Positions 12,321 through 43,857 of a stretch of DNA of 64,000 bases are shown here, in pieces. Below the pieces are notes generated by a model. It was given only the letters and a program-made list of their open reading frames with translations, did not search any database and was not told where the DNA came from. A program made the translations under genes and the position numbers. Every line of letters starts with the position of its first letter. Positions within the stretch are counted from its first letter, which is position 1. This stretch comes from Candidatus Omnitrophota bacterium. GTDB taxonomy: Bacteria; Omnitrophota; Gorgyraeia; Duberdicusellales; 4484-171. Location: positions 16,948-80,947 of the forward strand of contig WJJJ01000026.1 in assembly GCA_014729775.1 (NCBI GenBank), written 5' to 3'.

Positions 12321-14222
12321 TCATCCTTTCAAGGGCGAGTAGGTTTTATTCCCGGTCACAAAAAACTTGGAAAAAAACTCGTAATAATTGAGCCGGAGGG
12401 ACTGGATCGTCACCACCAGCCCTTCCAGCACGATCACGAAGACATTCCCCAGCAAAACCACTAAAAACGACAATGCGCCGCCGCCGATGGATGCGACCGC
12501 GCGGGACAACTCGAAGATCGCGATAAAAAGACCGGCATGGGCCAGGGCGAAAGCCGCAATTCGAATAAACGACAGCGTGTTGGCTAAATACCCCATAATG
12601 ATCTCCAGGATATCCACCATGCTTTCCATGAACGTCACCACGAAGCCCTCCCGTCTGCGCCGCAGGAGAGTTTCTGCCAGCGGTTTCAGAAACAGTATTC
12701 CCAGACCGGAACCGATCAGCGCGTACCAATGCACCGGCACCTCTCCTTTTTGGACAAAGATCTTGCTCACCACCCCGATCGCGATCCAGTACAGCGCTCC
12801 GGAAATCAGCCCCGCTTTGTCAAATAACGCTCTCAGGTAATTTCTGTCACGAATGGCGTTGATCACGTTGAGCACAATCCCCAGGGTGATCATCCCGATC
12901 CCGAAATACACACTGAGGGTAAAAATAGACATAATATCATGCAAAGGCTTGATCCACAAGGAGGGAAATTCAATCCCGAACACGCTGCCGAAGAGCACGC
13001 CGAACAGCGAAGAACTTATCCCGCAATATAACAGCAAAGCGCCCGCCTGGCGGATTTTTTCTTTTTGAGACCGGCGAAACAGCCATGCCGCGGCGCACAA
13101 TACCGCCCCATGGCCGATATCGCCGAACATCACGCCGAACATGAGTAAAAAACTGAAGGCGACGAATACCGTGGGATCAATCGAGCCGTAACGCGGCATC
13201 CCGTAGGAAGAGATCAGCAGTTCGAAGGGCTTCAGCAGCGCGTTATTTTGAAACCGTACCGGAACTTCTTCGTTTGCGATATGCAGTTGCCGCGGATCTC
13301 TCACCTCGACATACGAGGGAGACGCCGTGCGTTCGATCTCGCGAATGACCTGCTGTCTGGCCTCCTTCGGGACCCATCCGCAGAGCAGCGCGGTCCGTTC
13401 GGTCAAACAGGAAAACTTTTTCGCCTTCAGCAGGGACTGCCGTAGACGCAGGAAACTCCTTATCTGCGCCAGTTTTTCTTGCGACTCGGCGGCGAGCGCG
13501 GCCAATTGACGATCGATCTCTTCATTTTCCTGCCGGTAATGCGCGATTTTTTCCTTGATCTTGCCTTCAACATCGCCGGAAAGCATTCCCGGCTGGGCCG
13601 GCCACTCCATCGGTATCCAACCCACGTCATGAAGTGCTCTCTCAAAGACCGGCTTATCCTGTTTCAACCCCATGAGCATGGTCACCGCGGTATCTCCTTC
13701 GCGGCGATAAGGGTAAAGGATGTGCGGCACATCCTCCAGACTCCGCTCCAGCACCTGGAGATTCTCAGACGCGACTTTGCCCAGCGACACGTGAAGAAAG
13801 GTATAGACGGCCTTTCCCTGGAGCGGAAACATCAAATATTCTTTGATTTGGTATAAGAACATTTCCTGCCGGGAGACTTCTTCCCGCACCTGTTCTTTCT
13901 GCGCCAGCAGAGGGGCCGCCTTCTGTTCAATCCGGCCCAATACTTCGCGGAGCTCCTGATATGAAAAGGAAGGAAAGGTGGACGCCGCCGGAAGTGAAAC
14001 GCCGAGCGTTCGAAGAAGATGGGTGAGCTTCGCCTCCAGCGTGTCCAATTCGGTGAATTCCCGGCTGAGATTACAGCCGGAAAGGCTTCCCAGCTCCTGT
14101 TCGATATCGCGAAGGTCAACGGGATGGAACAGTCCCGTATGTACCAGGCGGGGTACGAGTTCGTCGAGCTTTTCCTTGAATACGACCACGCTCAACAGCT
14201 CCATCGAAGAAGGGGTCAGCAT
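12321..14222 (-). CDS. atpI: V/A-type ATP synthase subunit I (a-subunit, 116 kDa type)
   Basis: 633 aa, soluble N-terminal half and polytopic C-terminal half with the conserved Arg region (IRIAAFALAHAGL). Confidence 0.8.
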   Translation of the reverse strand: MLTPSSMELLSVVVFKEKLDELVPRLVHTGLFHPVDLRDIEQELGSLSGCNLSREFTELDTLEAKLTHLLRTLGVSLPAASTFPSFSYQELREVLGRIEQKAAPLLAQKEQVREEVSRQEMFLYQIKEYLMFPLQGKAVYTFLHVSLGKVASENLQVLERSLEDVPHILYPYRREGDTAVTMLMGLKQDKPVFERALHDVGWIPMEWPAQPGMLSGDVEGKIKEKIAHYRQENEEIDRQLAALAAESQEKLAQIRSFLRLRQSLLKAKKFSCLTERTALLCGWVPKEARQQVIREIERTASPSYVEVRDPRQLHIANEEVPVRFQNNALLKPFELLISSYGMPRYGSIDPTVFVAFSFLLMFGVMFGDIGHGAVLCAAAWLFRRSQKEKIRQAGALLLYCGISSSLFGVLFGSVFGIEFPSLWIKPLHDIMSIFTLSVYFGIGMITLGIVLNVINAIRDRNYLRALFDKAGLISGALYWIAIGVVSKIFVQKGEVPVHWYALIGSGLGILFLKPLAETLLRRRREGFVVTFMESMVDILEIIMGYLANTLSFIRIAAFALAHAGLFIAIFELSRAVASIGGGALSFLVVLLGNVFVIVLEGLVVTIQSLRLNYYEFFSKFFVTGNKTYSPLKG

Positions 14223-15253
14223 ATTAACACCGCCTTTGTCATCTCGCTATCCCATCCGTACTGGATCGCGTAAGCCAGAGAAACACAATTTTTCGCTTCC
14301 CAGCGTACCATGACGCAGTACGCCAGCAGAGTACCGATGGTAAACGGAAACCCCGACATGACCCGCCTCGCTTCCCGCATCAAAATCGCGTACAGAAACT
14401 GCCCGACTAAATGTATATTCCGGGGAGAAAAACTTTTCAACTCAGGATACCCTCCCGCGTGCACACTCTCCATTAAACTCGTTAATTCACCGGCGTAATG
14501 CCGCCGCACTTCTTCTTTGCGTACTTTATCCCCTCCGGGAATGATCCAGCCCAGGATATCGTCGACCCCGGCAGCGTAATATTTCTTGAACCGGATCAGC
14601 CAGTGGATATTCTCCATGTCGATCTCGACCCCCAGCAGTTTACGCACGGCTTTCCGGTCGGAAAAAGACAATCTGGCCAGCGCGTCAAGTACCCGCCGGT
14701 AATAATCGATATCAAGCGCGATTTCCAGGAAAAACACCGATCCGTGGAGTTTGAATTTTTCCCGCGCGCCGTTGAGCGGACGGCGGTAGGGAGTTTTCTC
14801 CAGCGCGAGAATAAACTCCTCGATCGTCGCCGAAGCGAGCAATACCGCGACGTCCACCCCGCGGAACTGTTGCTGAAGAATTCCCCGGTCGGAAGGCACC
14901 GGTTCCTTTTTGTGCCAGGCCCGGATCAGCCTTTTTAAGCGTTCAATTTCATAACGCTCGCAGTACACTTCGAGAAACTCTTTCTCCCGCGCGGTCGGAA
15001 TCACCTGGATAAGACGCTGAAGCTGGCGGCGTTCGTTTACTCGTACGTATTTCTCGATCCCCTGGGCCCGTACCGGTTGCGTCGGCACCGAAACGTCCGG
15101 ATCGGGGGGATGCGCCCGCCGCACCCGGTTCCACAGATCGTCCAGATCCGCCCTTTCCGCGCACGTCCGGAAATCGTCACAGCTGAGCAACCGGGAAATC
15201 ATCCCCCGGGTTTTCGCGTTGAGAAACGCGTATTTGGATAGCTGCCCTATCAT
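14216..15253 (-). CDS. atpC: V/A-type ATP synthase subunit C (d-type)
   Basis: 345 aa all-helical protein at the conserved position between the G/H-like gene and I. Confidence 0.65.
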   Translation of the reverse strand: MIGQLSKYAFLNAKTRGMISRLLSCDDFRTCAERADLDDLWNRVRRAHPPDPDVSVPTQPVRAQGIEKYVRVNERRQLQRLIQVIPTAREKEFLEVYCERYEIERLKRLIRAWHKKEPVPSDRGILQQQFRGVDVAVLLASATIEEFILALEKTPYRRPLNGAREKFKLHGSVFFLEIALDIDYYRRVLDALARLSFSDRKAVRKLLGVEIDMENIHWLIRFKKYYAAGVDDILGWIIPGGDKVRKEEVRRHYAGELTSLMESVHAGGYPELKSFSPRNIHLVGQFLYAILMREARRVMSGFPFTIGTLLAYCVMVRWEAKNCVSLAYAIQYGWDSEMTKAVLIC

Positions 15254-15573
15254 TCACGCTCCCTTAACGCGATCAGGCGGCGGAACAGCTCCTCGGCCCG
15301 GTCATGAATCTGCTGCATTCGGCGTTCCCGCACACACGCAGCATGCTCCCTTACCGAGGAAAAGATCTTTGTCCTTTCACGCTCGTACTCCCGGATGACC
15401 TCGACTTCCATCCGGCGAATCTCCTCGCCGGTTTGCTGCAGGAGGTCTTCGGTCTCCTCCGCTCCCTCGCGTTTCGCCTGATCCATACGTTTCTGCGCCT
15501 GGCGGCGGGATTCCTTGACCCGGGCGTCGGCTTCCCGTTCCGCCCGCAAAATAGTGTCGATTACCTCTTTCAT
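15250..15573 (-). CDS. V/A-type ATP synthase peripheral-stalk subunit (G/H-like), coiled coil
   Basis: 107 aa charged coiled-coil protein as first gene of the operon, overlapping atpC. Confidence 0.45.
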   Translation of the reverse strand: MKEVIDTILRAEREADARVKESRRQAQKRMDQAKREGAEETEDLLQQTGEEIRRMEVEVIREYERERTKIFSSVREHAACVRERRMQQIHDRAEELFRRLIALRERE

Positions 15574-18973: not shown

Positions 18974-19369
18974 TTAATCTTCGGTAATTTCCCCGGTGGT
19001 CAAATCCATGGTGAAGGTAGGACCGGTGCCGGAAGCGGCAGCGGTCACGGTACTTCCGGAAATGGAATAATCATAGTTGTCGTCGGTAAAGGACAGCGAT
19101 ACGTCCGCTTCATCGTCCCCGTCAAGGTCGGCATCTATGGCGACCTCACCGGAACCGCCACCCGAAGTTAAATCTCCGGGCCAGTCTCCGGTCGCCGAAT
19201 GAATCGCCATGGATACTTCGCGGATTTCCTCAAGATTCCCCTTTACCCTGGAAGCCCTGGCCTTATCGACCGACTGCATGTACTGCGGAATAGCGACTAC
19301 GAGCAAAATCCCTAATATAATGGAAATAATGAGCAGTTCCAGTAACGTGAACCCCTTACGACTGCGCAT
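18974..19369 (-). CDS. prepilin-type N-terminal cleavage/methylation domain pilin (major pilin-like, paralogue 1)
   Basis: KGFTLLELLIISIILGILLVVAIPQY class III signal peptide; acidic C-terminal region with DADLDGDDE. Paralogous to 21344-21739. Confidence 0.8.
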   Translation of the reverse strand: MRSRKGFTLLELLIISIILGILLVVAIPQYMQSVDKARASRVKGNLEEIREVSMAIHSATGDWPGDLTSGGGSGEVAIDADLDGDDEADVSLSFTDDNYDYSISGSTVTAAASGTGPTFTMDLTTGEITED

Positions 19370-19455
19370 ATTTTTTTCTCCCTTCCCCGCCCGCCGGGCT
19401 CCTTTTATTGATCATATTTTTTCCCGTGCCGTGCAGCACCCGTGTCCGCCGCCGT

Positions 19456-20079
19456 TTACTGTCCCCAGGAATGGGTAAACGGATAGAAGTACTCTTCGGC
19501 GAGATTGACCTCGGGATTGGACTTCGGATCTTCCGCGTGCCCCGGCCGCTTGCGCATGGCCAGATCACTGATCAAAATACCCCCGTTCTGTTTTTGGATC
19601 GAGAGCCCGTCGGGATCGACGAGTTGATGGGAAAGCACCCGGGAATCGTCTATCACCCCGTTGTCATCGAAAACCTCAAACGTGACCGAATTCGCCGGAT
19701 AGGTACGGGTGGCGAACACGGTATCCGCGTTGTTGGTATTAAACACGTAGCAGACCTCGCGGTCATCGCCATAATCCTGGGGCGTGCGGTTCTCATTGCC
19801 GTTGACGTCCATATCCTGCCGCAGACATAACTGATGCACCCCTCCGGTTGCGTTCACCGAAATCCCGTCGCTCACCCGGTCGCCGGTAACCGTGAGCATA
19901 TTTTTGTGAAGGTGATCCACCAGCAGGGTCATCCGGTTGAGAATTTCCACGACATTCTCAGTGGTGGTAAACATGCGGGAACTCAGAATATGAAAAGATA
20001 CCGCGGCGAGCACGATACTCACCATCAGCACCATTGCCAGCAGGAGTTCAATCAAGGTCACGGCGCGCTTCATTCGCAT
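19456..20079 (-). CDS. prepilin-type minor pilin / pseudopilin
   Basis: RAVTLIELLLAMVLMVSIVLAAV N-terminal prepilin motif; 207 aa. Confidence 0.7.
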   Translation of the reverse strand: MRMKRAVTLIELLLAMVLMVSIVLAAVSFHILSSRMFTTTENVVEILNRMTLLVDHLHKNMLTVTGDRVSDGISVNATGGVHQLCLRQDMDVNGNENRTPQDYGDDREVCYVFNTNNADTVFATRTYPANSVTFEVFDDNGVIDDSRVLSHQLVDPDGLSIQKQNGGILISDLAMRKRPGHAEDPKSNPEVNLAEEYFYPFTHSWGQ

Positions 20080-20088
20080 GGCAGGTAT

Positions 20089-20493
20089 TTATTCTTCTTC
20101 CTGAGGGGTATCCTCATAGGTTACGTCCATCTGGACCCGGCGCAAATCCATCACTTCCCCGTCGATCGTGACCTGTTCCACCGTGTATTCCGGCGTATAA
20201 GTCGTCCCGTCGGGCCGGTCCATACTCGCGCCGGGATAATCCTGGGCACCTCCGCCGGCGGGATCAATGTAGAGATCGTTACTCGCATCGTCCCAGGTAT
20301 CGGCGCGCACATGGATGTAGAGCTCATCAAACTGATCCCGTGAGATATTCATCGACTGCAGTCGTTTATGGGCGCGGTCAACCAGCCTCTGCGCACCCAC
20401 GAACGAAGCCAGCAGTCCGCCGAAGGCGAAAGCGAGAATGCCCGCGGCCACGAGCAGTTCCACCAGGGTAAAACTCTTTCGCTGAAGATTCAT
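20089..20493 (-). CDS. prepilin-type minor pilin / pseudopilin
   Basis: KSFTLVELLVAAGILAFAFGGLLA prepilin motif; 134 aa. Confidence 0.7.
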   Translation of the reverse strand: MNLQRKSFTLVELLVAAGILAFAFGGLLASFVGAQRLVDRAHKRLQSMNISRDQFDELYIHVRADTWDDASNDLYIDPAGGGAQDYPGASMDRPDGTTYTPEYTVEQVTIDGEVMDLRRVQMDVTYEDTPQEEE

Positions 20494-20504
20494 GCTTCCT
20501 CCGT

Positions 20505-20912
20505 TTACTGCGGCACCGGCCGGTTCGGATCGTTCCCGCCGGTACAGTCGCCGGCCAGGATGTTCGGGTCACCTGGCCCGATATGCCACGCTCCATGGCT
20601 GGCACTTGCCGCCTCCGCGCAGAACCCTCCACCGCCGGCGGTCACGCGGTAGGTCCAGAAACCGTTCGTAGCGAGCGTCAGATTCAGCGCGTTGTTGCAG
20701 GCCGCGGTATCTGCGCAGGCCGCGTAACTGTTGGTGCGCAGTTCTTCCGATTCCTCCGCCGTCTGCAACAGCAGCAGCGCCCCCCGCGCTTCCCGGTCAT
20801 GCGCCCGCAGACGCGCGTTCCAGTAATTCGGCAGGGCGAACGTTGCCACCACGCCCACGATAACCACTACCATCAGCAGTTCTATAAGGGTAAAACCCCT
20901 TTGTTGCCCCAT
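20505..20912 (-). CDS. prepilin-type pilin
   Basis: Internal start MGQQRGFTLIELLMVVVIVGVVATFALPNY; Cys-rich C-terminal domain. Confidence 0.7.
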   Translation of the reverse strand: MGQQRGFTLIELLMVVVIVGVVATFALPNYWNARLRAHDREARGALLLLQTAEESEELRTNSYAACADTAACNNALNLTLATNGFWTYRVTAGGGGFCAEAASASHGAWHIGPGDPNILAGDCTGGNDPNRPVPQ

Positions 20913-20926
20913 GCTTTCTCCTGATC

Positions 20927-21343
20927 CTAAAAACAGCCGCCTTCGGCGAATACTCCGGTGTTGAGATCCAGCGTAACACTGTTCGCCGGCTGCGCGCCGC
21001 TGCAGAAACCGGTCTGTTTTTGCGCAGTCACGACTCCTCCCTGGACAGTGTAAAGCCACATCTGATCGTTCTGTACACTGCGCAGATCAATACCCGAAAC
21101 GTTGGTTCCGATCCGGTTATCGAGATTGGCAGGATTCGGCACGTTTACAAAGTTTCCGGTTTCGCTCCGGATAATCTGTTCCGCTTCGGCAATGAGCGCC
21201 ATCGCGTGCCGTGCCTTCGCTACCTCGGCTCGAAGCACCGAGCCGCGGTAGCGAGGGACTGCGACCGACGCCAACGCGACGATCACCACGGCGGCAATCA
21301 ACAATTCCAACAACGTGAATGCGGATTTTCGGCGCATATCCAC
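20927..21343 (-). CDS. prepilin-type pilin
   Basis: KSAFTLLELLIAAVVIVALASVAVPRY prepilin motif; C-terminal Cys pair. Confidence 0.7.
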   Translation of the reverse strand: MDMRRKSAFTLLELLIAAVVIVALASVAVPRYRGSVLRAEVAKARHAMALIAEAEQIIRSETGNFVNVPNPANLDNRIGTNVSGIDLRSVQNDQMWLYTVQGGVVTAQKQTGFCSGAQPANSVTLDLNTGVFAEGGCF

Positions 21344-21739
21344 CTAGTCGTCAGATTCGGTAATCTCTCCAGTTTCCAGATCAATGACGAATGTCGCGCC
21401 GCTTCCGGACGCGGTCACGTCGCTTCCGGAAATGGAGTAATCGTAGTCGTCATCGGTAAAGGACAGCGATACGTCCGTTTCGTCATCCCCGTCAAGGTCG
21501 GCATCAAGGGCGACCTCTCCGGCACCGTCGCCCGAATCTAAAGCGTCGGGCCAGTCTCCGGTCGCCGACTGAATCGCCATGGCGACTTTACGGATTTCCT
21601 GAAGATTACTCTTCGCGCTCGCTTCCTTGGCTTTCTGGACCGATTCCATGTACTGCGGAATAGCGATCACTGCCAGAAGACCTAAGATGATGACTACGAT
21701 CAGCAGTTCCAACAAGGTAAACGCCTTACGCTCTTTCAT
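21344..21739 (-). CDS. prepilin-type pilin (major pilin-like, paralogue 2)
   Basis: Start at internal MKERKAFTLLELLIVVIILGLLAVIAIPQY. About 80% nucleotide identity to 18974-19369, including the DADLDGDDE tail. Confidence 0.8.
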   Translation of the reverse strand: MKERKAFTLLELLIVVIILGLLAVIAIPQYMESVQKAKEASAKSNLQEIRKVAMAIQSATGDWPDALDSGDGAGEVALDADLDGDDETDVSLSFTDDDYDYSISGSDVTASGSGATFVIDLETGEITESDD

Positions 21740-21830
21740 ACAAACCCCCTTTTGTGAATAGGTTACGATAAAAAATCCCACTTTATTTATACCATACCCC
21801 GTCACCCGGTGTCAATCCCGGCGGAAAAAC

Positions 21831-23072
21831 TCACATTCCGCCGCCGCCGAGCTGGGATATGCGGAACATCGGCAGAAACAGGGATACCACCAGACCGCCG
21901 ATCAGCAGTCCCATGACCATGATCATGATCGGTTCGAACGCCGCGATCAGCCGTTCCACGCGGGTCGTCAGTTCTTTCCGATAATGGATGGATATCTTCT
22001 CAAACACCTGGGGCATCGTCCCGGTCTCCTCGCCGATCTTGGCCATTTCGGAGATCAGCAAAGGAAAAATATTCAGATTACGGAATTCATCGGAAAGGGA
22101 CGATCCCTCGCGCACCTTCTCCTTGACGTGAAGAATACTTTTTTCCAGACGGATGTTGCCGATCCCGTGGGCGGCGACTTCCAGGGTATATACCAGAGGC
22201 AGGCCGCTGTCGAGCAGAATGTAGACAGTGGAAGTCAAACGCTCCAGGCAGGCGTAAAAATGAAACGGCCCCAGCAGAGGGATTTTCAGCCGGATCTTAT
22301 CCCAGAGGGGACGGGTCTCCTGCGAGCGCATAAAATAGACCAGCCCGGCGACCGCCGCGATAAACCCGGCAAGCAGAAGAAAAAAATAGGTATTCACGAA
22401 TTTGCCGATCCCGAACACGATTTGCGTGGCCAGGGGCAGATCGACTCCGAAGTTATCGAATAATTCGATGAACTTCGGCAGGATCACCCGGAAAAACACG
22501 AAGACCACGACCACCGCCACGATCATCAACAGCGACGGGTATATCATCGCGCTTTTTATCTTGCGCTCGAATTCGATCCGCATTTCAAGATAATCCGCCA
22601 GTTTTTCGAGCACAAAGGGCAGGTTTCCCGAAGCCTCGCCTACTTCGACTATCCCGCGCCACAACGAAGAGAATACCTTCGGATACTTCCCGATTGCTTC
22701 GCCCAGCGACAGCCCTTCCTTGATCCGTTTGGCGCATTCACGGAGAATTTTTTCCAGTTTCGCGCTTTCGGTCTGAAAGGACAGGATCTCCAGACTCCGC
22801 AGCAGGGTCACCCCGCTGGAGAGCGTAGTGGCAAGATTACGGGCAAAAAAGGTCAGGTCGTATAGTTTCAGTGAATTGCGTTTCCCGCGGCGGCGGCGTA
22901 AAAAACCGGCACCTCCGCCCGCGCCCTTTTTCTCCTTCACTTCTTTGATCGAGATGATGAACAGTCCCCGCGCTCTGAGTTTGCCGATCAGTTCCTGGCG
23001 CGTATTCGCTTCTTCTATATCCCGTATCTTTCGGGCGTCCTGTGTTTTCGCCGAATAAATAAACTGCGGCAT
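21831..23072 (-). CDS. type II secretion / type IV pilus inner-membrane platform protein (GspF/PilC family)
   Basis: 413 aa, two GspF repeats, three TM segments. Confidence 0.85.
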   Translation of the reverse strand: MPQFIYSAKTQDARKIRDIEEANTRQELIGKLRARGLFIISIKEVKEKKGAGGGAGFLRRRRGKRNSLKLYDLTFFARNLATTLSSGVTLLRSLEILSFQTESAKLEKILRECAKRIKEGLSLGEAIGKYPKVFSSLWRGIVEVGEASGNLPFVLEKLADYLEMRIEFERKIKSAMIYPSLLMIVAVVVVFVFFRVILPKFIELFDNFGVDLPLATQIVFGIGKFVNTYFFLLLAGFIAAVAGLVYFMRSQETRPLWDKIRLKIPLLGPFHFYACLERLTSTVYILLDSGLPLVYTLEVAAHGIGNIRLEKSILHVKEKVREGSSLSDEFRNLNIFPLLISEMAKIGEETGTMPQVFEKISIHYRKELTTRVERLIAAFEPIMIMVMGLLIGGLVVSLFLPMFRISQLGGGGM

Positions 23073-23086
23073 ACGTTCCCCTTTGG

Positions 23087-24796
23087 TTAATACGCGATCG
23101 CCACTGAAAGCACTTCCTCAAGGGAAGTGACCCCTTCTTCAACCCTTTTGATCCCGCTCTCCAGCAGCGACTGGGATCCGTTCTTCCTCGCCGCCGCCAT
23201 GATCTCTCCCGGCGGCGCGTCGCGGGAGATCGCTTCACGGATCGAGTCATCGACATAGATGATTTCGGCCACCACGGTCCGTCCGCGGTACCCCACCATA
23301 TTACACTTTTCACACCCCTTGGGCCGGTAAATCACCGGCACATTGATCTTGACGTTTCGCGGCATATCTTCGGGTTTCACTTCATAGGCTTCTTTGCACT
23401 CCGGACACAAACGCCTCACCAGACGCTGGGCGACGATCAGCCGCAGAGAAGCCACGACCATATACTTAGGCACGCCGATATCGACCAGCCGGTCGATAGT
23501 CGTGGGGGCGTCGTTGGTATGCAGAGTGGAAAGGACCAGGTGGCCGGTAAGCGCCGAACGGATACCGATTTCCGCGGTTTCCAGATCGCGCACCTCCCCC
23601 ACCAGAATGATGTCCGGATCCTGGCGCAGAAACGAGCGCAGGGCGTTGGCGAAAGTAAGACCGATTTCCGGTTTTACCTGAACCTGGTTGATCCCCTGAA
23701 TCCGGTACTCGACCGGATCTTCAATGGTAAGCGTGTTCTTGGCCGACGATTTGATCTCGTTCAGTGCCGAATACAGCGTGGTCGATTTTCCGCTCCCGGT
23801 CGGCCCGACCAGAAAGACCAGCCCATAGGAGGAGGATATACCGTGACGAATCTTCTCCAGCTCATCCGGGAAAAAACCCAGTTTGGCCAAATCCAGCGGC
23901 ACGCGTGATTTATCCAGGATCCGCATGACTACCTTTTCCCCGAAAATCGTGGGCACCGTCGAGACCCGCAGATCGATCAGCCGTTTCATGATCTTGACCA
24001 TGAATCCGCCGTCCTGGGGCAGGCGTTTTTCCGCGATGTCCATTTTGGATAAGATCTTGACGCGGGAGACGATCGGCAAATACAGCGACACCGGCGGCGA
24101 CGGCATTTCATATAACACACCGTCGATACGGTAGCGCAGGGAAAGCTGTCCGTGGTGAGGCTCAATGTGGATATCGGAAGCGCTTTCCTCTATCGCCTGG
24201 CGGATGATCAAATCCACCAGTTTGACTACCGGCGCTTCCTCGGCCCGCGCGATCAGCGTATCCAGACTCAAATCGGTCTCTTCCGAGCCGATCTCCTTGA
24301 TTTCCTCATCGACCGTTTTTTCCACCGCGTCCATAGCTTCGCGGTAAAACTTATCCTTGCCGTAAAAAGATTCAATGGCATGAAGGATGTCGGACTTGGT
24401 ACTCACAACCGGATTTACCTCGCAGCCGGTGAGCTTCTTCAAATTGTCCATCAGGATCAAATCAAGGGGATCAAACATGACCACCGTAAGTGAATTCAGA
24501 CTTTTGGAAAGCGGCAGGACCAGATTCCGGATCGCGAAGTCGTAGGGGATCATGTTTTCCAGATTCTGCTCCGCGGCGGGTTTGAGCTTGCCGGAAGAAA
24601 GAGATACGTAGGGAATGGAAAGCTGCTTACTGAGCGCGATCACGATCTGCTCTTCATTGACATAATCGAGCTGGATCAGCGTTTCGCCCAGTCGTCCGCC
24701 TTCCTTTTTCTGCGCTGAAAGCGCTTCCTTGATCTGATCTTCGGTAACGATCCCTTCTGCGGTGAGAATATCGCCGAGTTTTTTATATCGTGCCAT
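23087..24796 (-). CDS. type II secretion / type IV pilus assembly ATPase (GspE/PilB family)
   Basis: 569 aa; N1E-like N-terminus, Walker A GPTGSGKSTT, Asp/His boxes, tetracysteine CPEC...CEKC. Confidence 0.9.
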   Translation of the reverse strand: MARYKKLGDILTAEGIVTEDQIKEALSAQKKEGGRLGETLIQLDYVNEEQIVIALSKQLSIPYVSLSSGKLKPAAEQNLENMIPYDFAIRNLVLPLSKSLNSLTVVMFDPLDLILMDNLKKLTGCEVNPVVSTKSDILHAIESFYGKDKFYREAMDAVEKTVDEEIKEIGSEETDLSLDTLIARAEEAPVVKLVDLIIRQAIEESASDIHIEPHHGQLSLRYRIDGVLYEMPSPPVSLYLPIVSRVKILSKMDIAEKRLPQDGGFMVKIMKRLIDLRVSTVPTIFGEKVVMRILDKSRVPLDLAKLGFFPDELEKIRHGISSSYGLVFLVGPTGSGKSTTLYSALNEIKSSAKNTLTIEDPVEYRIQGINQVQVKPEIGLTFANALRSFLRQDPDIILVGEVRDLETAEIGIRSALTGHLVLSTLHTNDAPTTIDRLVDIGVPKYMVVASLRLIVAQRLVRRLCPECKEAYEVKPEDMPRNVKINVPVIYRPKGCEKCNMVGYRGRTVVAEIIYVDDSIREAISRDAPPGEIMAAARKNGSQSLLESGIKRVEEGVTSLEEVLSVAIAY

Positions 24797-24799
24797 ACC

Positions 24800-24819
24800 T
24801 TCTTTCCGTTGAGAAAGAA
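24800..24819 (-). promoter_or_regulatory. perfect 7-bp inverted repeat (TTCTTTC-N6-GAAAGAA) overlapping the Shine-Dalgarno-like sequence of the GspE/PilB gene
   Basis: mRNA reads uucuuuc-ucaacg-gaaagaa-ggu-AUG; the 3' arm contains the only purine-rich SD-like element. Confidence 0.3.
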
Positions 24820-24844
24820 TGTGCCGCGCGCCTGCGATCGCTAC

Positions 24845-26386
24845 TCACCGGGCGTATCGGTCAAGCGTCTGCTCAATGAGCACGCGTTTTTGCGGATTAT
24901 ACTGTTCGCGATGCGGCATCATCGTTTTCTGCGCTAACTGCCTGGTTTTTTCTTCAAGCACGTGCGGCGTCAGGAACACGAGAAGTTCACGCTCCTGCAC
25001 GTCCTGGTTTTTCCACCGGAAAAAACGTCCCAAAAAGGGCACATCACCCAAAATCGGCACTTTAGTATTGTTTTTCGTGGACTCGGTCTTAATTAGTCCG
25101 CCGATCAGCAGAGTCTCGCCGTTCTCAAGACGGGCGATCGCGGTCGCCGACCGTTCCTCGGGATCCTTAATGCTTCCCGCAATAAACGCCTCCGCGGTCT
25201 CGGTCCCCAGCGTAAATCCGCTGTCTTTCGCTTCCCGAACCACCGCTTCCACAAACAGGGTGATCTCGTCGTTCTCGTGATTCACCTGCGGCGTGACCCG
25301 GAGCCGGGTCCCGGTCTGCGCACGTTCGGTGGTAAAGGTCGTTCTGTCGGTATCTCCCGACTCCTCGCGTGTCACTCCGATCGCCTCATCGGTCGTGATC
25401 TGAATTTCCGCGGTCTGATTGGCCAGGGTAAGAATCCGCGGCCGGGCCAGAGATTTGGTATCCGACAAACTGCGCAGAAAATTCAGCACCAGATCAGCCC
25501 CCACCACGGTCAGGACCGTGGGAGTGAACGAGCCCGCGGGGTTTCCGCTGAATTCCCAGTTATCCAGGATAGCTCCTTCCTGCACGTCAAATGAGCCGTA
25601 GTTCGGCGTCGCCGAATACTCGCCGAACGGGAACCGGGTAAATCTCGTTCCCGATACTCCCAGCGAGACCAGGCTGTCCGGCCAGTTGACTCCCATTTTA
25701 TCGATGTTGCGCTTGGACACGTCCAGCATTTCCACCTCGATCATCACCCGCTTCGGTGATCTGTCCAGCCGGTAAATCACCTCGTCGATCATGGGAAACT
25801 GCGCGGGCACATCCACGACGATCAGAGAATTGGTGATCGGATCCTCGCTCACTCTTCCGAATTCGCTGAGCACGGTCTCCACCGCTTTTTTCAGCCCGAT
25901 GAGTTCTTCCTGATCGCCTTCTTCACCCTCTTCTCCTTCTTCGCCTTCTTCCTCCCCGGTACCCATCACGGAATCGATTTCGGTTTTCATCCGGGTGGAA
26001 TCCACGCGCAGATATTTGAGCTGATACACCTTGGTTTTCAGCTCGATGGTCGGCTTGCCCATCTCCTTGACCACGAACACATTGGCCTCCGGATAAAAAT
26101 CGTAGGTAAGATTGTTCGCTTTAAAAATGATATCCAGCGCTTCCTTTAACGGCACGTCCTCCAGATAGAGCACCAGCTTTCGGTCCTGCACCGCTTCGGT
26201 GGAAACGAAATTCAAACCGGTCTGCTGGGAAAGCATCTTGAGCACCCCCACCAGACGCGCGCCTTCCAGATCAAGAGAAACCCGTTTCTTGACGCCGGCG
26301 ATCAGGTAATCACCGTACATGGAATCCTGAGCCCCGGCACTCAGGCCGACGGTAAGCAACAGCAATAAAACGAGCAGTCTTTTCAT
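24845..26386 (-). CDS. secretin (GspD/PilQ family outer-membrane channel)
   Basis: Signal peptide, N-domains, C-terminal secretin motif VPILGDVPFLGRFFR; contains a GEEGEEGEEGEE insertion. Confidence 0.85.
   Translation of the reverse strand: MKRLLVLLLLLTVGLSAGAQDSMYGDYLIAGVKKRVSLDLEGARLVGVLKMLSQQTGLNFVSTEAVQDRKLVLYLEDVPLKEALDIIFKANNLTYDFYPEANVFVVKEMGKPTIELKTKVYQLKYLRVDSTRMKTEIDSVMGTGEEEGEEGEEGEEGDQEELIGLKKAVETVLSEFGRVSEDPITNSLIVVDVPAQFPMIDEVIYRLDRSPKRVMIEVEMLDVSKRNIDKMGVNWPDSLVSLGVSGTRFTRFPFGEYSATPNYGSFDVQEGAILDNWEFSGNPAGSFTPTVLTVVGADLVLNFLRSLSDTKSLARPRILTLANQTAEIQITTDEAIGVTREESGDTDRTTFTTERAQTGTRLRVTPQVNHENDEITLFVEAVVREAKDSGFTLGTETAEAFIAGSIKDPEERSATAIARLENGETLLIGGLIKTESTKNNTKVPILGDVPFLGRFFRWKNQDVQERELLVFLTPHVLEEKTRQLAQKTMMPHREQYNPQKRVLIEQTLDRYAR
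25913..25960 (-). repeat. in-frame tandem 9-bp repeats (GAAGARGGN x4) encoding GEEGEEGEEGEE in the secretin gene
   Basis: Plus strand gccttcttcaccctcttctccttcttcgccttcttcc; translates on the minus strand to EEGEEGEEGEEGD. Confidence 0.7.
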
Positions 26387-26417
26387 TATTCCTCCTTCAA
26401 ATTGGGAATACGATTCG

Positions 26418-26822
26418 TTATTTGGTCACCCCGCGCTTAAATAACTTTCCCCGGTACATAAAAAACACGTTATTTTCTTCGATCTTGAACACCGTCGCCT
26501 CGGCGTCATTATAATACACCGTTTCGCCGACCGCGTATACATCGTCGTTGATCAGGGCCCGCGGCGTATCAGTACCCCATAAAATCCCCTGCACCGGGAT
26601 AGACGGCAGTACGATCGTTTCCGGCTCGGGTTCACCCTGCGGCCCTCCCGGCTCCTCGGGCAGTAATGATTTAAACGGATCGCGTTCGACCGCCGGAATA
26701 CTCAGGGGGACATCGGACACCTGCGCCAGCCCCGCGCGTTCCCCCCGCCACACGCCCGTAAAGGCCAAGGCCGCGGTCAGCGATAGGATCACTCCGGCTT
26801 TATGACACCACAATCTCATCAT
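26418..26822 (-). CDS. PilP/GspC-HR-like periplasmic protein (secretin-interacting)
   Basis: Signal/TM segment, Pro/Glu-rich linker, C-terminal beta-domain resembling PilP / GspC HR (GILWGTDTPRALINDDVYAVGETV). Confidence 0.4.
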   Translation of the reverse strand: MMRLWCHKAGVILSLTAALAFTGVWRGERAGLAQVSDVPLSIPAVERDPFKSLLPEEPGGPQGEPEPETIVLPSIPVQGILWGTDTPRALINDDVYAVGETVYYNDAEATVFKIEENNVFFMYRGKLFKRGVTK

Positions 26823-27313
26823 TCCCCCTGCAGGACATAATACCCGACCAGATCGGCGCGTACCCGCTTGCCGCCGTTCCGGGCCTCACGCACCGTCATG
26901 GTCTTCACCTGGATATTCTTGTGCTCCACCGTATTTACGAACTCCAGAATATCGGTGTACGTTTCGGAAGTGAATTCAAGATAAATTTCCGACACCCCGT
27001 ACCCGTCCTCTTCCCGCTGTTTGGGACGCAGCGCCTCCATATCGACCCCGCTCTCATACGCCGCCTGCTCCACGAAGCGTTTATACTCAATGGGATCGGA
27101 AAAGGCGAACGCTTCGCGCAGAGCCCCGAATTCTTTGTTCACACGTCTCCAGGACGCGATCATCTCCTGTCCCTCTTTCACCTCTTCGACCTGGCGGTTG
27201 ACCGCCTCAAGATCTCCTGCGTATTTCTTGTAGACGCCGTGTACGACAAACGCGGTCACTACCGCGAGCGTCACCACGATAAACACATTTTTATATTCCG
27301 ACAGACGGTTCAT
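26819..27313 (-). CDS. PilO/GspM-like bitopic inner-membrane assembly protein
   Basis: Single N-terminal TM, coiled coil, periplasmic domain; position between the PilM-N fusion and the PilP-like gene. Confidence 0.5.
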   Translation of the reverse strand: MNRLSEYKNVFIVVTLAVVTAFVVHGVYKKYAGDLEAVNRQVEEVKEGQEMIASWRRVNKEFGALREAFAFSDPIEYKRFVEQAAYESGVDMEALRPKQREEDGYGVSEIYLEFTSETYTDILEFVNTVEHKNIQVKTMTVREARNGGKRVRADLVGYYVLQGE

Positions 27314-28797
27314 TTCTCCTCCATCCGAATTTCGAACGAAGTCACTTCATATTCATTTTGCGCGTTCCGTGTCGATGAAACCATCTCCACCGATCCGAAC
27401 AGCCCGAATCGAGAGTTGTGCTCCCGGAGTTCCCGTACGAATTCATCGATACTGACCCGCTCCTTCAGGCTGTCGCCGAGGAACGAAAATCCCGATACAC
27501 TTCCTTGATATCCGTTCTCCCGTTTGGTCAACCGTATTTCATTGAGCCATATGCCGTCGGGCAGTACGTCCGGCAGATTATTGAAAAAGGAACTGGTCCG
27601 TTTGAATTTATCCTGAAGACGCCGAAGGACCGTCACTTCGTTGCGGCGCGACTGCAGACGCTGTGCCCGGTCTTCCCAGGAGAGCCCGCGGAATTCCTCG
27701 GGCAGATTCAGCGCGGCTTCCATTTTGTTCAGCTTCAGCTTCTGGTCAAAGATCACGTTACTGAAAAGCACCGCCACCAGGACCGACGCAAGGATCCCCA
27801 CGCCCAGCACGATCCCGATCGCCAGGTAATTGATCCCCACCCTGGTAGGTTCCATCGACTGCTGTATTTTTACTTCCTCTTCCTTGGTTTCCTGCAATTC
27901 GGGCGAAAACTTGTAGGGGAAAGTTTCCCGACCGGCGGTCCCCAGCGCTTTTGCCCCCTCGACCTCGTTCACCCGATCGTCGATTTCAGTCGCCAGTACC
28001 GCGGATATGTCCAGCTGGAGATCCTCTTTCAACGCAGCAATGATGTCCTCCCGCGGCGTATCGGTCACTACCACCAGTTTATTGATGGAATAGGCCCGGA
28101 ATTCCCGCAGAAAATACTGAAAAGAGAGTCTCACCGACTCGGTGTATTTGCCCGTGTCGAACTCACCCTCCTGTTCCACCGCCAAATAGCGGTTAAATAC
28201 CGGCAGTTCGTTATAGAAGAAGGTCAGATACGACTCGTGCCGGGTAAGATCGAGCACGGCAAAATTTTTCAAGCCTGAATATTTTTTCACTGACTTGAGC
28301 GTCCGTACCAGCGCGATACAAGCCGGTTCGATGATGGTCGGGGTAAGGTCAAGGTGAGAAAAGATCGTCTGGACTTTCCGGTAATTCTCCTGCTTTATCC
28401 CGATAAAACAGACCATCAGCTTTTTTTCCTTCGCCAGACGGGCGTAGCTGTAATCCCAGATCAGTTCGGTCACCTTAAAGGGAATATGTTTTTCGATCTC
28501 GTACATGAGCGAGGCGCTGAGTTCGTTCTTGTTCATCATCGGCATTTCGAACGAACGGAAGATGAAATCCCGGTCGCCGAGGGCGACGCTCACGTCTTTT
28601 TCGTCACTGTGAATCTGACGGAGGGTTTTATTGATCAGGGCTTCCCATTTGACGTCTTCGCTCAATGTTTCGACCTGTGCGTCCTCCTCAAGAGAAGAGA
28701 GATCGAACTTTGCCGCGGCCAGGGCGCGCTTGGCTTCGGCCAGAACCGCCCCGATCGAATTCACGCCCAAATAAATACCGAGATTTTTTCGTGCCAT
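27310..28797 (-). CDS. PilM-PilN fusion protein (GspL-like architecture)
   Basis: N-terminal actin-like PilM domain (LGIYLGVNSIGAVLAE...), central TM (INYLAIGIVLGVGILASVLVAVLF), periplasmic PilN-like coiled coil. Confidence 0.6.
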   Translation of the reverse strand: MARKNLGIYLGVNSIGAVLAEAKRALAAAKFDLSSLEEDAQVETLSEDVKWEALINKTLRQIHSDEKDVSVALGDRDFIFRSFEMPMMNKNELSASLMYEIEKHIPFKVTELIWDYSYARLAKEKKLMVCFIGIKQENYRKVQTIFSHLDLTPTIIEPACIALVRTLKSVKKYSGLKNFAVLDLTRHESYLTFFYNELPVFNRYLAVEQEGEFDTGKYTESVRLSFQYFLREFRAYSINKLVVVTDTPREDIIAALKEDLQLDISAVLATEIDDRVNEVEGAKALGTAGRETFPYKFSPELQETKEEEVKIQQSMEPTRVGINYLAIGIVLGVGILASVLVAVLFSNVIFDQKLKLNKMEAALNLPEEFRGLSWEDRAQRLQSRRNEVTVLRRLQDKFKRTSSFFNNLPDVLPDGIWLNEIRLTKRENGYQGSVSGFSFLGDSLKERVSIDEFVRELREHNSRFGLFGSVEMVSSTRNAQNEYEVTSFEIRMEEK

Positions 28798-28988
28798 CAG
28801 CCCTCTTTCGATTTACAGCTCTTCAGCCACTCGTCGATATACTTTCGGTCGAACCGCCACACCTTCCCGATTTTGATCCCTGAAATCTTCTTCTGATGCA
28901 GCCAGTTGTAGATCGTCTGCTTCTTCAGCCCGAGATAATCGGCAAGCTCGTCGACACTCATCAGGCGGGATGTTTTGTTTTTCTTCAT
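28797..28988 (-). CDS. helix-turn-helix DNA-binding protein (excisionase/MerR-like HTH_17 family)
   Basis: 63 aa; LMSVDELADYLGLKKQTIYNWLHQKKISGIKIGKVWRF matches the excisionase-family HTH. Its stop overlaps the PilM-N start (ATGA at 28795-28799). Confidence 0.65.
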   Translation of the reverse strand: MKKNKTSRLMSVDELADYLGLKKQTIYNWLHQKKISGIKIGKVWRFDRKYIDEWLKSCKSKEG

Positions 28989-29032
28989 CTGTACTCTTTT
29001 TCTTACTTTTACTATAATCTCTATACATATTC

Positions 29033-29061
29033 ATTTAAATATTTTTATTTAATAAAGTCAA
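29033..29061 (-). promoter_or_regulatory. candidate sigma70-type promoter for the HTH/pilus operon
   Basis: Minus strand TTGACT (29056-29061), 17 nt, TTAAAT (29033-29038), about 45 nt upstream of the HTH start. Confidence 0.3.
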
Positions 29062-29091
29062 GTAATTTTTATCATCTTTTTACGCGGTTTT

Positions 29092-29171
29092 CCTATATAT
29101 TGTGGTTTTCAATCCCCCCCCCGATATATAGGGCATAAAAATGCTCCCACGACCCGCTGTTTCTATATAGG
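29092..29171 (-). promoter_or_regulatory. three copies of a (C)CTATATA(T/G)G motif, two inverted and flanking the C9 tract plus one direct; candidate operator
   Basis: CCTATATAT at 29092-29100, ATATATAGG at 29124-29132 (inverted repeat of the first), TCTATATAGG at 29162-29171. Confidence 0.45.
29114..29122 (-). repeat. homopolymeric C9 (G9 on the transcribed strand) tract in the pilus-cluster promoter region
   Basis: Nine consecutive C at 29114-29122, inside the only strongly AT-rich intergenic region of the window. Confidence 0.85.
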
Positions 29172-29219
29172 TATTAATGGAGAAAACAGGCCGAACCCAC
29201 ACGGAAGCGGACCGCGCCT

Positions 29220-30674
29220 TTACCGGCCGGCGGCGGGGTTCCATTTCACCTCAAGCGCCCGTGCCGCCCGTGCTTCATCGACCCGTCCGCCCGGCCGGGA
29301 AAGAGGTGCCCGGAGAAGCCGGTCGGGTTCCTCCCGCGCCTCACGGCAAATGGCCCGCACTGCCTCGATGAACCGGTCCAGAGTCTCTTTGGATTCGGTT
29401 TCGGTTGGTTCGACCATCAAGGCTTCTTTGACGATAAGAGGGAAATACATGGTAGGCGGATGAATTCCGTAATCAATAAGTCTCTTGGCGACGTCATAGG
29501 CCCTCACCCCTCTTCCTGCCAGCGACGCACAGGAAAAAACCGCCTCATGCATGCAGGCGCGGTCATAGGGCACATCCAGCACCTCTTTGAGCATCCTCTG
29601 TACATAGTTGGCGTTGAGCACCGCGTGTTCGGACATTCTCCGCAGCCCCGCGCCTCCCAATCTCAATACATAGGCGTAGGCCCTGACGCAGACGAGAAAA
29701 TTGCCGTAAAAGCTGCGGATCGTCCCGATAGTTTCCGGCGACCCTTGAGACCAGGAATACCGGCCGTCGCGCCGTTCAATGCGGGGAACGGGAAGATAGG
29801 CACGCAAGCGCTCAGTCACTCCCACGACCCCCGCGCCGGGCCCGCCGCAGCCATGAGGCGTGGAAAATGTTTTATGTAAATTAAGATGCATCACGTCAAA
29901 TCCCATGGCCCGGGGCGCCCCGATCCCGGCCAGCGCGTTGAAATTAGCCCCGTCATAATACAACAGCGCGCCTTTCTCATGAGCCATACGCTTCAGTTCA
30001 GAGATTTCCTCTTCGAATATCCCCAGCGTGTTGGGATTGGTGAGCATCACCGCGGCGGTCTGTTCGTTCAGCGCCCGGGAGAACGCCCGCGCGTCCACGC
30101 AGCCTCCGGAGTTACTGGGCACGACGACGGTCGCATATCCGCACATCGCCGCGCTTGCCGGATTTGTTCCGTGCGCGGAATCCGGAACGAGCACGTGGGT
30201 TTTCTTTACTCCCCGCTGTTCATGATACTTGCGGATCATCATCATGCCGGTAAATTCACCGTGCGCCCCGCTGGAAGGGATCAGGCTGAAATAATCCATG
30301 CCGGTGATCGCGCACAGACAGCGTTCCAATTCATAGAGCAGTCCCAGCGCGCCCTGAACGCTGTCCTCCGGCTGGTAGGGATGTAAATCGCGCAGTCCCT
30401 CCAGCGCGGCCGCCTGTTCGTGAAGACGGGGATTGTGCTTCATGGTGCATGAACCGAGAGGATAAAAATTACCGTCCACGGAAAAATTATTTGCGGCCAG
30501 CGCGCTGAAATGGCGAACGGTTTCCCGCTCTCCCGGATCGGGCAGGGGCAGCGTCTCCCGCAGGAGTTTTCGGGGAAAAATGTCGGTCAGGGATACGTCC
30601 GGAACCCCGCTGTCCGGAACATAGGTAGGCGCTTCGCTCCCGGAATATCGATCAAACACGAACCTGTCCACCAT
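29220..30674 (-). CDS. gcvPB: glycine dehydrogenase (decarboxylating) subunit 2
   Basis: 484 aa; PLP-lysine region NLHKTFSTPHGCGGPG. Confidence 0.9.
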   Translation of the reverse strand: MVDRFVFDRYSGSEAPTYVPDSGVPDVSLTDIFPRKLLRETLPLPDPGERETVRHFSALAANNFSVDGNFYPLGSCTMKHNPRLHEQAAALEGLRDLHPYQPEDSVQGALGLLYELERCLCAITGMDYFSLIPSSGAHGEFTGMMMIRKYHEQRGVKKTHVLVPDSAHGTNPASAAMCGYATVVVPSNSGGCVDARAFSRALNEQTAAVMLTNPNTLGIFEEEISELKRMAHEKGALLYYDGANFNALAGIGAPRAMGFDVMHLNLHKTFSTPHGCGGPGAGVVGVTERLRAYLPVPRIERRDGRYSWSQGSPETIGTIRSFYGNFLVCVRAYAYVLRLGGAGLRRMSEHAVLNANYVQRMLKEVLDVPYDRACMHEAVFSCASLAGRGVRAYDVAKRLIDYGIHPPTMYFPLIVKEALMVEPTETESKETLDRFIEAVRAICREAREEPDRLLRAPLSRPGGRVDEARAARALEVKWNPAAGR

Positions 30675-42642: not shown

Positions 42643-43857
42643 TCACACGTGCTCCGCTGCCGCGTCCGGGGACATCGCACTGCGTTCCCCGTCCGCCCGC
42701 GATTCCACTTCAATCTCTTTCCGGTCGGCGAACGTCCGGCCCATCACGAGGATCCGGGGGATCCCCAGCAGCTGCGCGTCACGGAATTTCACGCCCGCGC
42801 TTTCATTCCTGTCATCAATCAAAACGCTTCCCCCCCCGGTCTCAATACGTTCCGCCAGACGGCGGGCCTGGGGGATGAACTCCTGATTCAATACGACGAT
42901 CACCGCCCGATACGGACTCACCCGCGCCGGCCATATAATTCCCTTTTCATCGTGATTCGTTTCAATAATAGCCGAGAGCAGGCGGCTCACTCCGATCCCG
43001 TAACATCCCATTACCAAGGGGTTCCGTTTCCCGTGCTGATCGAGAAACGTCGCCTGCAGCGGTACGGAATACTTTGTGCCTAATTTAAACACGTGCCCGA
43101 TCTCGATCATCCGCGACTCACTCAGCGCCTGGCCGCAGTGTTCGCACTGTCCCGCTTCCCGGGCGTAAAGACCGCACCCGGCGCAGGCATACAGCATATC
43201 TTCGCCGATTTCCGCCGGGACCATGAATTCATGGGACACGTTGCCGCCCATAGCTCCCGGATCGGCTTCGCTCACCACGTATTCCAATCCGCATTCGGTA
43301 AAAATTTTCTGATAGGCGTCCAGCATCTTCTCGTAACTGGCGTTCAACCCGCTTTCGTCCGCGTCAAAACTGTAGGCGTCCTTCATCATGAATTCGCAGC
43401 CGCGGACCAGGCCGAACCGGGGCCTCATCTCGTCCCGGTATTTCGTCTGTATCTGATACAGCGTGACCGGAAGCTGTTTATAGGAAGAAATATATTTGGA
43501 CGCGATTTCGGTGATCAATTCCTCGTGCGTGGGCCCCAGACACAGTTTTCGGCCCTTGCGGTCCTGCACATGGAGCATCACTTCCTCCAGGTCTTTATCC
43601 CGCCCGGTCTTCTGCCACAGTTCCAGCGGCTGCAGCGCGGGCATAAATAATTCCTGCGCACCCGTTTGCTCCATCCTCCCGCGCACGATTTCTTCGATGT
43701 TCCGAAGAACTTTATACCCCAGCGGTAAATAGGTATAAATCCCTGCCGATACCATGTGCAGCAGGCCGGCGCGCAGAGAAAGCGCATGGCTTACGGCCTC
43801 GGCTCCCTTCGGAGTCTCCTTAGTCGTTGGGATGAATGTCTGGGAACGCAATTCCAT
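42643..43857 (-). CDS. proS: proline--tRNA ligase (short bacterial-type form lacking the INS editing domain)
   Basis: Class II motifs; 404 aa; C-terminal anticodon-binding domain. Confidence 0.85.
   Translation of the reverse strand: MELRSQTFIPTTKETPKGAEAVSHALSLRAGLLHMVSAGIYTYLPLGYKVLRNIEEIVRGRMEQTGAQELFMPALQPLELWQKTGRDKDLEEVMLHVQDRKGRKLCLGPTHEELITEIASKYISSYKQLPVTLYQIQTKYRDEMRPRFGLVRGCEFMMKDAYSFDADESGLNASYEKMLDAYQKIFTECGLEYVVSEADPGAMGGNVSHEFMVPAEIGEDMLYACAGCGLYAREAGQCEHCGQALSESRMIEIGHVFKLGTKYSVPLQATFLDQHGKRNPLVMGCYGIGVSRLLSAIIETNHDEKGIIWPARVSPYRAVIVVLNQEFIPQARRLAERIETGGGSVLIDDRNESAGVKFRDAQLLGIPRILVMGRTFADRKEIEVESRADGERSAMSPDAAAEHV

Follow-up and report, generated by a model that had tools for sequence, protein, structure and literature searches.

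The 231-bp AT-rich stretch upstream of the pilus operon in the window (the whole 64,000 nucleotides of DNA that we analysed) finds good support, from comparison with related loci, as a putative operator-promoter region that is conserved ahead of an Omnitrophota operon encoding an HTH_17 protein and a type IV pilus. Within it lies a run of nine Gs on the coding strand (G9), for which the preliminary description had proposed a role in phase variation. On balance we lean towards another view, namely that G9 is a lineage-specific and slippage-prone filler that preserves a 29-bp spacing between two putative operator sites, and we prefer this to a switch: the tract most likely did not evolve as a contingency device.

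The pilus operon and its first gene

The relevant genes all lie on the minus strand (Table 1). Matches to Pfam along the operon comprise PilM_2 and PilN, Secretin (2.9e-38), T2SSE (2.5e-134), T2SSF (1.7e-58) and N_methyl pilins, the last of these confirmed in two of the five prepilin-like genes. Judged by these domains the operon is of the type IV pilus or type II secretion-like kind, with all components present, and the description of a pilus operon headed by an HTH gene is borne out.

Table 1. Features of the pilus locus and its upstream region; distances are counted from the first base of the -35-like hexamer.
Feature	Position	Strand	Remarks
gcvPB (glycine dehydrogenase subunit 2)	29220-30674	-	upstream neighbour; its stop codon is the edge of the intergenic region
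Intergenic region	28989-29219		231 bp, between gcvPB and the HTH_17 gene
P3, distal TATATA-core site ATACCTATATAG	29163-29174	-	
P2, putative operator site CTATATATCG	29122-29131	-	8/10 to consensus CAATATATAG; starts 70 bp upstream of the -35
G9 (C9 on the plus strand)	29114-29122	-	-61 to -53; overlaps the last base of P2
P1, putative operator site CAATATATAG	29093-29102	-	10/10 to consensus; starts 41 bp upstream of the -35
P1 to -35 stretch	29062-29092	-	31 bp; A-tracts about 11 bp apart (GAAAACCGCGTAAAAAGATGATAAAAATTAC)
-35-like hexamer TTGACT	29056-29061	-	TTGAC/TTGAT in relatives
-10-like hexamer TTAAAT	29033-29038	-	within conserved block TATTTWAAT, 17 bp after the -35
HTH gene (stand-alone winged-helix; HTH_17, excisionase/MerR type)	28797-28988	-	63 aa; first gene of the operon; ATG at 28988
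PilM-PilN fusion	27310-28797	-	495 aa; start codon overlaps the HTH stop codon (ATGA)
Remainder of the pilus operon	18974-27313	-	164-aa and 134-aa proteins, secretin, PilB-type ATPase, PilC, five prepilin-like genes
Secretin	26386-24845	-	
PilB-type ATPase	24796-23087	-	
PilC	23072-21831	-	

Several features of the neighbourhood are recorded here in their own right. In the PilM-PilN fusion PilM_2 covers residues 8-203 and PilN residues 404-492, and the fusion is kept across Omnitrophota homologues of 485-515 aa. Two of the prepilin genes, at 18974-19369 and 21344-21805 on the minus strand, are paralogues sharing 72% identity over 130 aa; they stand in direct orientation about 2 kb apart, with three other pilin-like genes between them, and recombination acting on this pair could exchange or vary pilins. 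Beyond the operon, at 12321-15573 on the minus strand, are encoded a 633-aa multi-pass membrane protein, a 345-aa protein and a 107-aa charged protein that, by eye, look like subunits of a V/A-type ATPase (I, C or d-like, and a stalk subunit).

The 63-aa product of the first gene matches Pfam PF12728 (HTH_17) with an E-value of 4.3e-17 and 62.6 bits against a cut-off of 27; its best sequence match in the PDB is the Xis protein of mycobacteriophage Pukovnik (4j2n, E 2e-3). An AF2 model (pLDDT 83.6) has strands at residues 9-11, 38-40 and 43-47 and helices at 12-19, 23-31 and 48-61. The modelled fold is that of a winged helix – a strand, two helices, a beta-hairpin wing and a C-terminal helix – and Foldseek places it beside RdfS (8dgl, TM 0.71), the GIsul2 excisionase (8c3t, 0.68), and Pukovnik Xis (4j2n), BldC (6ama) and RacA (5i44), each at 0.66. 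Stand-alone winged helices of the MerR or excisionase type bind AT-rich repeat arrays as cooperative multimers. Such cooperative array binding by proteins like BldC and Xis fits both the repeated sites described below and the ATTATA repeats that recur with a 10-bp period in relatives.

The likeness of the HTH protein to BldC (6ama/6amk), RdfS (8dgl) and Pukovnik Xis (4j2n) consists in a common fold together with the HTH_17 match. It differs from them in having neither an integrase nor a mobile-element context, and in that its gene, conserved across a phylum, heads a pilus operon on the chromosome; as a DNA-binding protein it would be their putative counterpart. The possibility that it is a true excisionase (a recombination directionality factor), with the AT-rich stretch marking the edge of a mobile element, was rejected: the neighbours are gcvPB and pilMN, no integrase is present and synteny is conserved.

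A conserved upstream region in Omnitrophota

Our comparison drew on 107 related Omnitrophota loci. The window's PilMN is identical to the Candidatus Omnitrophica protein GF333_06270, and no relative exceeds 50% identity to it. The HTH protein is far more constant, being 73-87% identical across loci whose PilMN proteins are 36-50% identical, and 88% identical to the window's in one further locus (L107). A search with it returned 297 homologues at E below 1e-5, all of the named ones from Omnitrophota, and PilMN follows the HTH gene in 83 of 89 loci. The order in the closest relatives is gcvPB-lplA-lipA-HTH-pilMN. In three of these (L003, L004 and L007) it is thus lplA, for a lipoate-protein ligase, and lipA, for lipoyl synthase, that separate gcvPB from the HTH gene; in the window gcvPB directly adjoins the pilus promoter. 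No intrinsic terminator was found after gcvPB, the fold of 29150-29240 being no better than those of shuffled sequences (z = -0.83), so that read-through from the gcv operon is possible.

The intergenic region stands out from its surroundings. It is the sole 150-nt stretch of the window below 36% GC, with a minimum of 24.7%, and the claim that it is the only AT-rich stretch therefore stands; the figure of about 60% GC first given for the window does not, the measured value being 55.4%. Three of the window's seven TATATA hexamers sit in it, and both of the window's copies of CWATATATMG coincide with P1 and P2, where 0.22 copies would be expected in the window (4 of 100 shuffles reach two).

On the plus strand the repeat copies lie where they had been described: CCTATATAT at 29092-29100, ATATATAGG at 29124-29132 and CTATATAGG at 29163-29171. 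In a repeat search the inverted repeat grows to arms of 14 nt that are 86% complementary (29092-29105 and 29119-29132) and separated by 13 nt; the C run contributes 4 nt to one of them. Less well supported is the interpretation of these copies as inverted half-sites: the comparative data favour P1 and P2 as two copies, in the same orientation and with starts 29 bp apart, of a motif whose core is palindromic, P1 being the downstream member. The distal site P3 contains a block, ATACCTATATA, that is common to L003, L004 and L007. A conserved spacing for P3 was considered and rejected, the distance from P3 to P2 varying between 36 and 43 bp by hand count.

Evidence that P1 and P2 are more than a local curiosity came from dividing the HTH proteins by the residue that precedes VWRF. 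Subfamily A (GKVWRF) takes in 30 loci including the window, subfamily B (GGVWRF) 47 and subfamily C (GHVWRF) 12. In subfamily A a motif scan located one CAATATATAG-like site whose start falls at -40 or -41, counted from the opening base of the -35, and another site at -69 or -70. Of the 23 distinct loci of subfamily A, 19 have two core-like sites at a distance of exactly 29 bp, an arrangement seen in none of the others (0/46 in B and 0/9 in C, 0/55 together). Five further upstream variants retain the 29-bp pair, at -69 and -40 where a -35 can be located; since L107 has a degenerate P1, P2 (at -70) is the sole site to score there. The window, with P1 at -41 and P2 at -70, shows the canonical spacing.

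When the subfamily-A regions were aligned without gaps and anchored on P1, three conserved blocks emerged: CAATATATAG-TGGTAT (P2 and its flank), ATA-CAATATATAG (P1) and TTGAC.-N17-TATTTWAAT. Information content is high at P2, at P1, at the -35 and in the -10 block, and low in the spacer of about ten columns that in the window holds the G run; between the TGGTAT flank and P1 the spacer varies in sequence and is constant in length. That the TATATA repeats are operator-like sites, as had been suggested, draws support from these fixed positions relative to a -35/-10-like block in relatives with such divergent PilMN proteins.

The same comparison bears on the core promoter. A generic promoter scan listed only TTTAAA-N17-TATAGT and not TTGACT-N17-TTAAAT; we prefer the latter, already picked out in the preliminary description and present on the minus strand, because its block is conserved in relatives, which keep TTGAC.-N17-T.TAAT. 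The exact register of the -10 is uncertain, given that the second base of the hexamer is not the canonical A. In most relatives the stretch from P1 to the -35 contains AAATTATA as two or three direct repeats that recur every 10 bp.

Subfamilies B and C (loci L028-L088) have upstream motifs of their own. Those of B comprise ATTATAATCTAAGTAAGT...ATTATAA and tandem AAGTAAGT repeats just before CACTTGACAA, and those of C comprise AAGTTAAGGAAAAATA...TATTTTTCCTTATTTTTT and CCTTGACAAAGTAAGTTCTTTATGGTATAT. To judge from their sequences, these differing sets may reflect co-evolution of regulator and operator, or they may simply be clade-specific promoters. A further small element lies closer to the gene. 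The leaders of L003, L004, L024, L025 and L029, which differ in length, have a short AGTAAGAA element 10-25 nt upstream of the HTH start codon, and in the window AAAAGTAAGAAAAAG, at 29004-28990 on the minus strand, contains AGTAAG (29000-28995). The AGTAAGAA element may be a ribosome-binding or regulatory element, and it resembles the AAGTAAGT repeat of subfamily B.

The arrangement that we envisage would thus consist of a sigma-70-like core, TTGACT-N17-TTAAAT, preceded by the 31-bp A-tract stretch and, upstream of this, by P1 and then P2. The sites would most likely be bound by the co-encoded 63-aa Xis/BldC-like protein: the protein and the site pair co-occur strictly, the motif sets are specific to subfamilies, and the motif is absent elsewhere in the window. 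Since both sites lie wholly upstream of the -35, the HTH protein would control the operon, its own gene included, as an activator or an architectural factor.

A critical issue is whether some other factor – a global binder of AT-rich DNA or a nucleoid protein – occupies sites that are themselves real, with the HTH protein serving another role. The motif is AT-rich and of low complexity, and the three subfamilies do not differ in their recognition-helix segment (KQTIYNWL), although their upstream motifs do. Moreover, the subfamilies coincide with clades, so that co-variation of motif and protein may reflect phylogeny and not recognition. We nonetheless regard binding by another factor as improbable: HTH subfamily and motif set co-occur strictly, the HTH protein is much more conserved than its neighbours, and the absence of further copies of CWATATATMG from the 64-kb window argues against a global factor.

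The G9 tract: filler or switch

The nine-base C run reported on the plus strand was confirmed, and is G9 on the coding strand. It is the longest G/C run of the window, followed by a C8 at 42830-42837 that lies within a 404-aa ORF, and no other long intergenic G/C tract was found in the 64 kb. A G9 or C9 was present in 71 of 100 dinucleotide-preserving shuffles of the window (mean 1.92 runs), but a G/C run of at least nine arose in a fraction of only 1.45e-4 of 200,000 shuffles of the 231-nt intergenic region. The run itself is therefore not beyond chance at the level of the window; its position is unusual. On the plus strand as a whole there are 15 C runs of at least six and a single G run of that length, an asymmetry that parallels the predominance of minus-strand genes and places G runs on the coding strand.

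Among relatives the tract has no counterpart. The upstream regions of 89 homologous loci, 21.4 kb in all, contain no other G/C run of at least seven, and the tract is unique to this genome among about 108 loci. It occupies the position at which relatives have the conserved TGGTAT flank and some of the variable spacer. Shorter G runs occupy the same position in L010 (GGGG) and in L107, where a G5 lies at -59 to -55 (TGGGGGTG), and the same spacer elsewhere carries A7/A8 runs (L021 and L001/L018). With nine Gs the tract exceeds the length of about seven or eight from which G/C runs are subject to slipped-strand mispairing.

Its length would set the spacing of P2 and P1, whose function as sites we infer from their conservation. 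Given that this spacing is nearly invariant at 29 bp and that the tract lies between the two sites, a one-base change would alter a constrained geometry, much as the preliminary description had anticipated. The window conforms to the 29-bp pattern only because the tract has nine Gs.

How might such a tract have arisen? We suggest that G9 is lineage-specific sequence in an otherwise unconstrained part of the P2-P1 spacer, and that its probable source is the G-rich flank of P2; as this flank most relatives have TGGTAT, while L010 has GGGG and L107 has TGGGGGTG. Growth of the run may have been driven by the GC bias of a 55% GC genome, an origin that would be neutral: non-conserved positions of the window's promoter are GC-rich (for example AAACAGCGGGTCGTGGGAGC and CCGCG), which would allow TGG(G)G to lengthen neutrally to G9. 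Tract length would then be held at nine because the canonical 29-bp spacing is kept. A run of this kind would be intrinsically prone to slippage, and a slip of one base in either direction would mis-space P1 and P2.

Length variation was sought directly. Tract variants from G6 to G14 with exact flanks gave no matches in JGI metagenome contigs, exact-protein look-ups of the HTH protein and PilMN found no record, and the clusters of PilMN and of the HTH protein each consist of a single protein on a single contig; neither the flank search nor the protein clusters revealed a second assembly of this population. In near-identical relatives homopolymers keep their length: T7 is constant in L004-L006 and in L007/L008, and A8 in L001/L018. 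For one marine population, eight independent assemblies agree fully in promoter sequence. Runs of T7-T8 also occur upstream of P2, at about -89 from the -35 in L004-L008 (where the T run lies between P3 and P2), at -101 in L011-L013, at -94 in L024 and at -82 in L027, and these too are of the same length in near-identical loci.

Comparison with known promoter tracts helps to frame the alternatives. In the Bordetella fim promoters the tract sits between an activator site and the -10, replacing a -35, whereas the tract in the window lies 53-61 bp upstream of an intact -35, between two upstream sites. What the window shares with fim2, fim3 and fimX is a poly-C/G homopolymer in a promoter that serves a fimbrial or pilus gene. 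In fim, tract length changes transcription by altering how an upstream regulatory element is placed relative to the core promoter (PMC1891110): the C7 and C8 alleles of B. pertussis fimX are polymorphic and differ 3.8-fold in transcript, and the C stretch, C7 in fimX, measures 10-18 in the fim2/fim3 strains typed (PMC1891110). Closest to the arrangement in the window is the nadA promoter of Neisseria meningitidis, in which a TAAA repeat tract is flanked by NadR operators and differences in spacing change expression (PMC2791445). Each has, upstream of its core promoter, a simple-sequence tract set between sites for a small regulator (putative in the window), and in each the spacing that depends on tract length is that of distal promoter elements and not that between -35 and -10. 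The window differs in having a mononucleotide G run and not a tetranucleotide repeat, in that no operator overlaps the core promoter, and in its host, an uncultivated environmental bacterium as opposed to a host-adapted pathogen.

These parallels bring us to the main rival of the filler interpretation: a true phase-variation switch, in which slipped-strand mispairing would convert G9 to G8 or G10 at high frequency and the pilus operon would flip between states. Each slip would alter the 29-bp spacing and the helical phase of the sites (about 34 degrees per bp) and so disturb cooperative binding of the regulator, with G9 as the canonical functional state. We hold this possible rather than probable. 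G9 falls within the length range of proven variable promoter tracts (fimX C7/C8; PMC1891110), and its location between two conserved, near-invariantly spaced sites is the geometry of nadA (PMC2791445). The target is a surface pilus operon with two 72%-identical pilin paralogues, a typical phase-variable class, and the A7/A8 runs of L021 and L001 fall within the same spacer. The run is locally very improbable, with nine Gs inside a 33% GC region (p about 1.5e-4), and this favours a switch and tells against a neutral filler. Two further points weigh against the filler: G9 displaces a moderately conserved TGGTAT flank, and, by analogy, a hypermutable tract within a spacer of invariant length would match the habit of known promoter phase-variation loci. 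Set against the switch is that the population is found in one assembly only, with no length polymorphism observed, and that the T7 and A8 runs and the eight marine promoters just described do not vary in length. The uniqueness of the tract among about 108 loci, moreover, means that G/C tracts have not evolved recurrently here; the window holds no further long intergenic G/C tract; and a G9 is nothing out of the ordinary at the composition of the window as a whole.

Two-colour Illumina chemistry is known to generate spurious poly-G, and a sequencing or assembly error (poly-G or collapsed reads) must accordingly be weighed alongside the idea that the 14-nt inverted repeat, which could form a hairpin, belongs to an RNA element such as a terminator or attenuator. 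We consider either explanation very unlikely. That exactly nine Gs should yield the family's canonical P2-P1 spacing is hard to reconcile with an artefact. The hairpin was rejected, being no more stable than shuffled sequence (z = -0.62); no terminator-like site was detected, and the sequence after the gcvPB stop codon likewise shows no advantage over shuffles in folding; and an Rfam scan of 28500-29700 returned two chance-level matches only, far below gathering scores.

A proposed regulatory module for Omnitrophota pili

Omnitrophota are abundant, uncultivated and often ultra-small bacteria. A literature search found no paper on the regulation of their pili, nor on an HTH-operator-pilus module; comparison of the loci lends good support to the existence of just such a module, apparently phylum-wide. 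It would combine a highly conserved winged-helix protein of 60-70 aa, two TATATA-core sites at fixed positions 29 bp apart and a conserved pilus promoter, and in this form it is open to test. Within it G9 would constitute a natural hot spot for spacing mutants.

Were G9 a genuine contingency locus – which we think doubtful – slippage between the operator sites of a mini-regulator would stochastically switch an entire type IV pilus operon, with escape from pilus-specific phages or alternation between attached and free states as possible uses. Promoter-spacing phase variation would then extend far beyond host-adapted pathogens, and a phylum-wide regulator of Omnitrophota pili would have been identified. 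Tract length in sequencing reads would be informative in either direction: heterogeneous reads would make this a rare case of phase variation driven by simple sequence repeats outside host-associated pathogens, and an invariant length would mark the tract as filler produced by GC drift, and as such a demonstration of how strictly the spacing of the two sites is kept.
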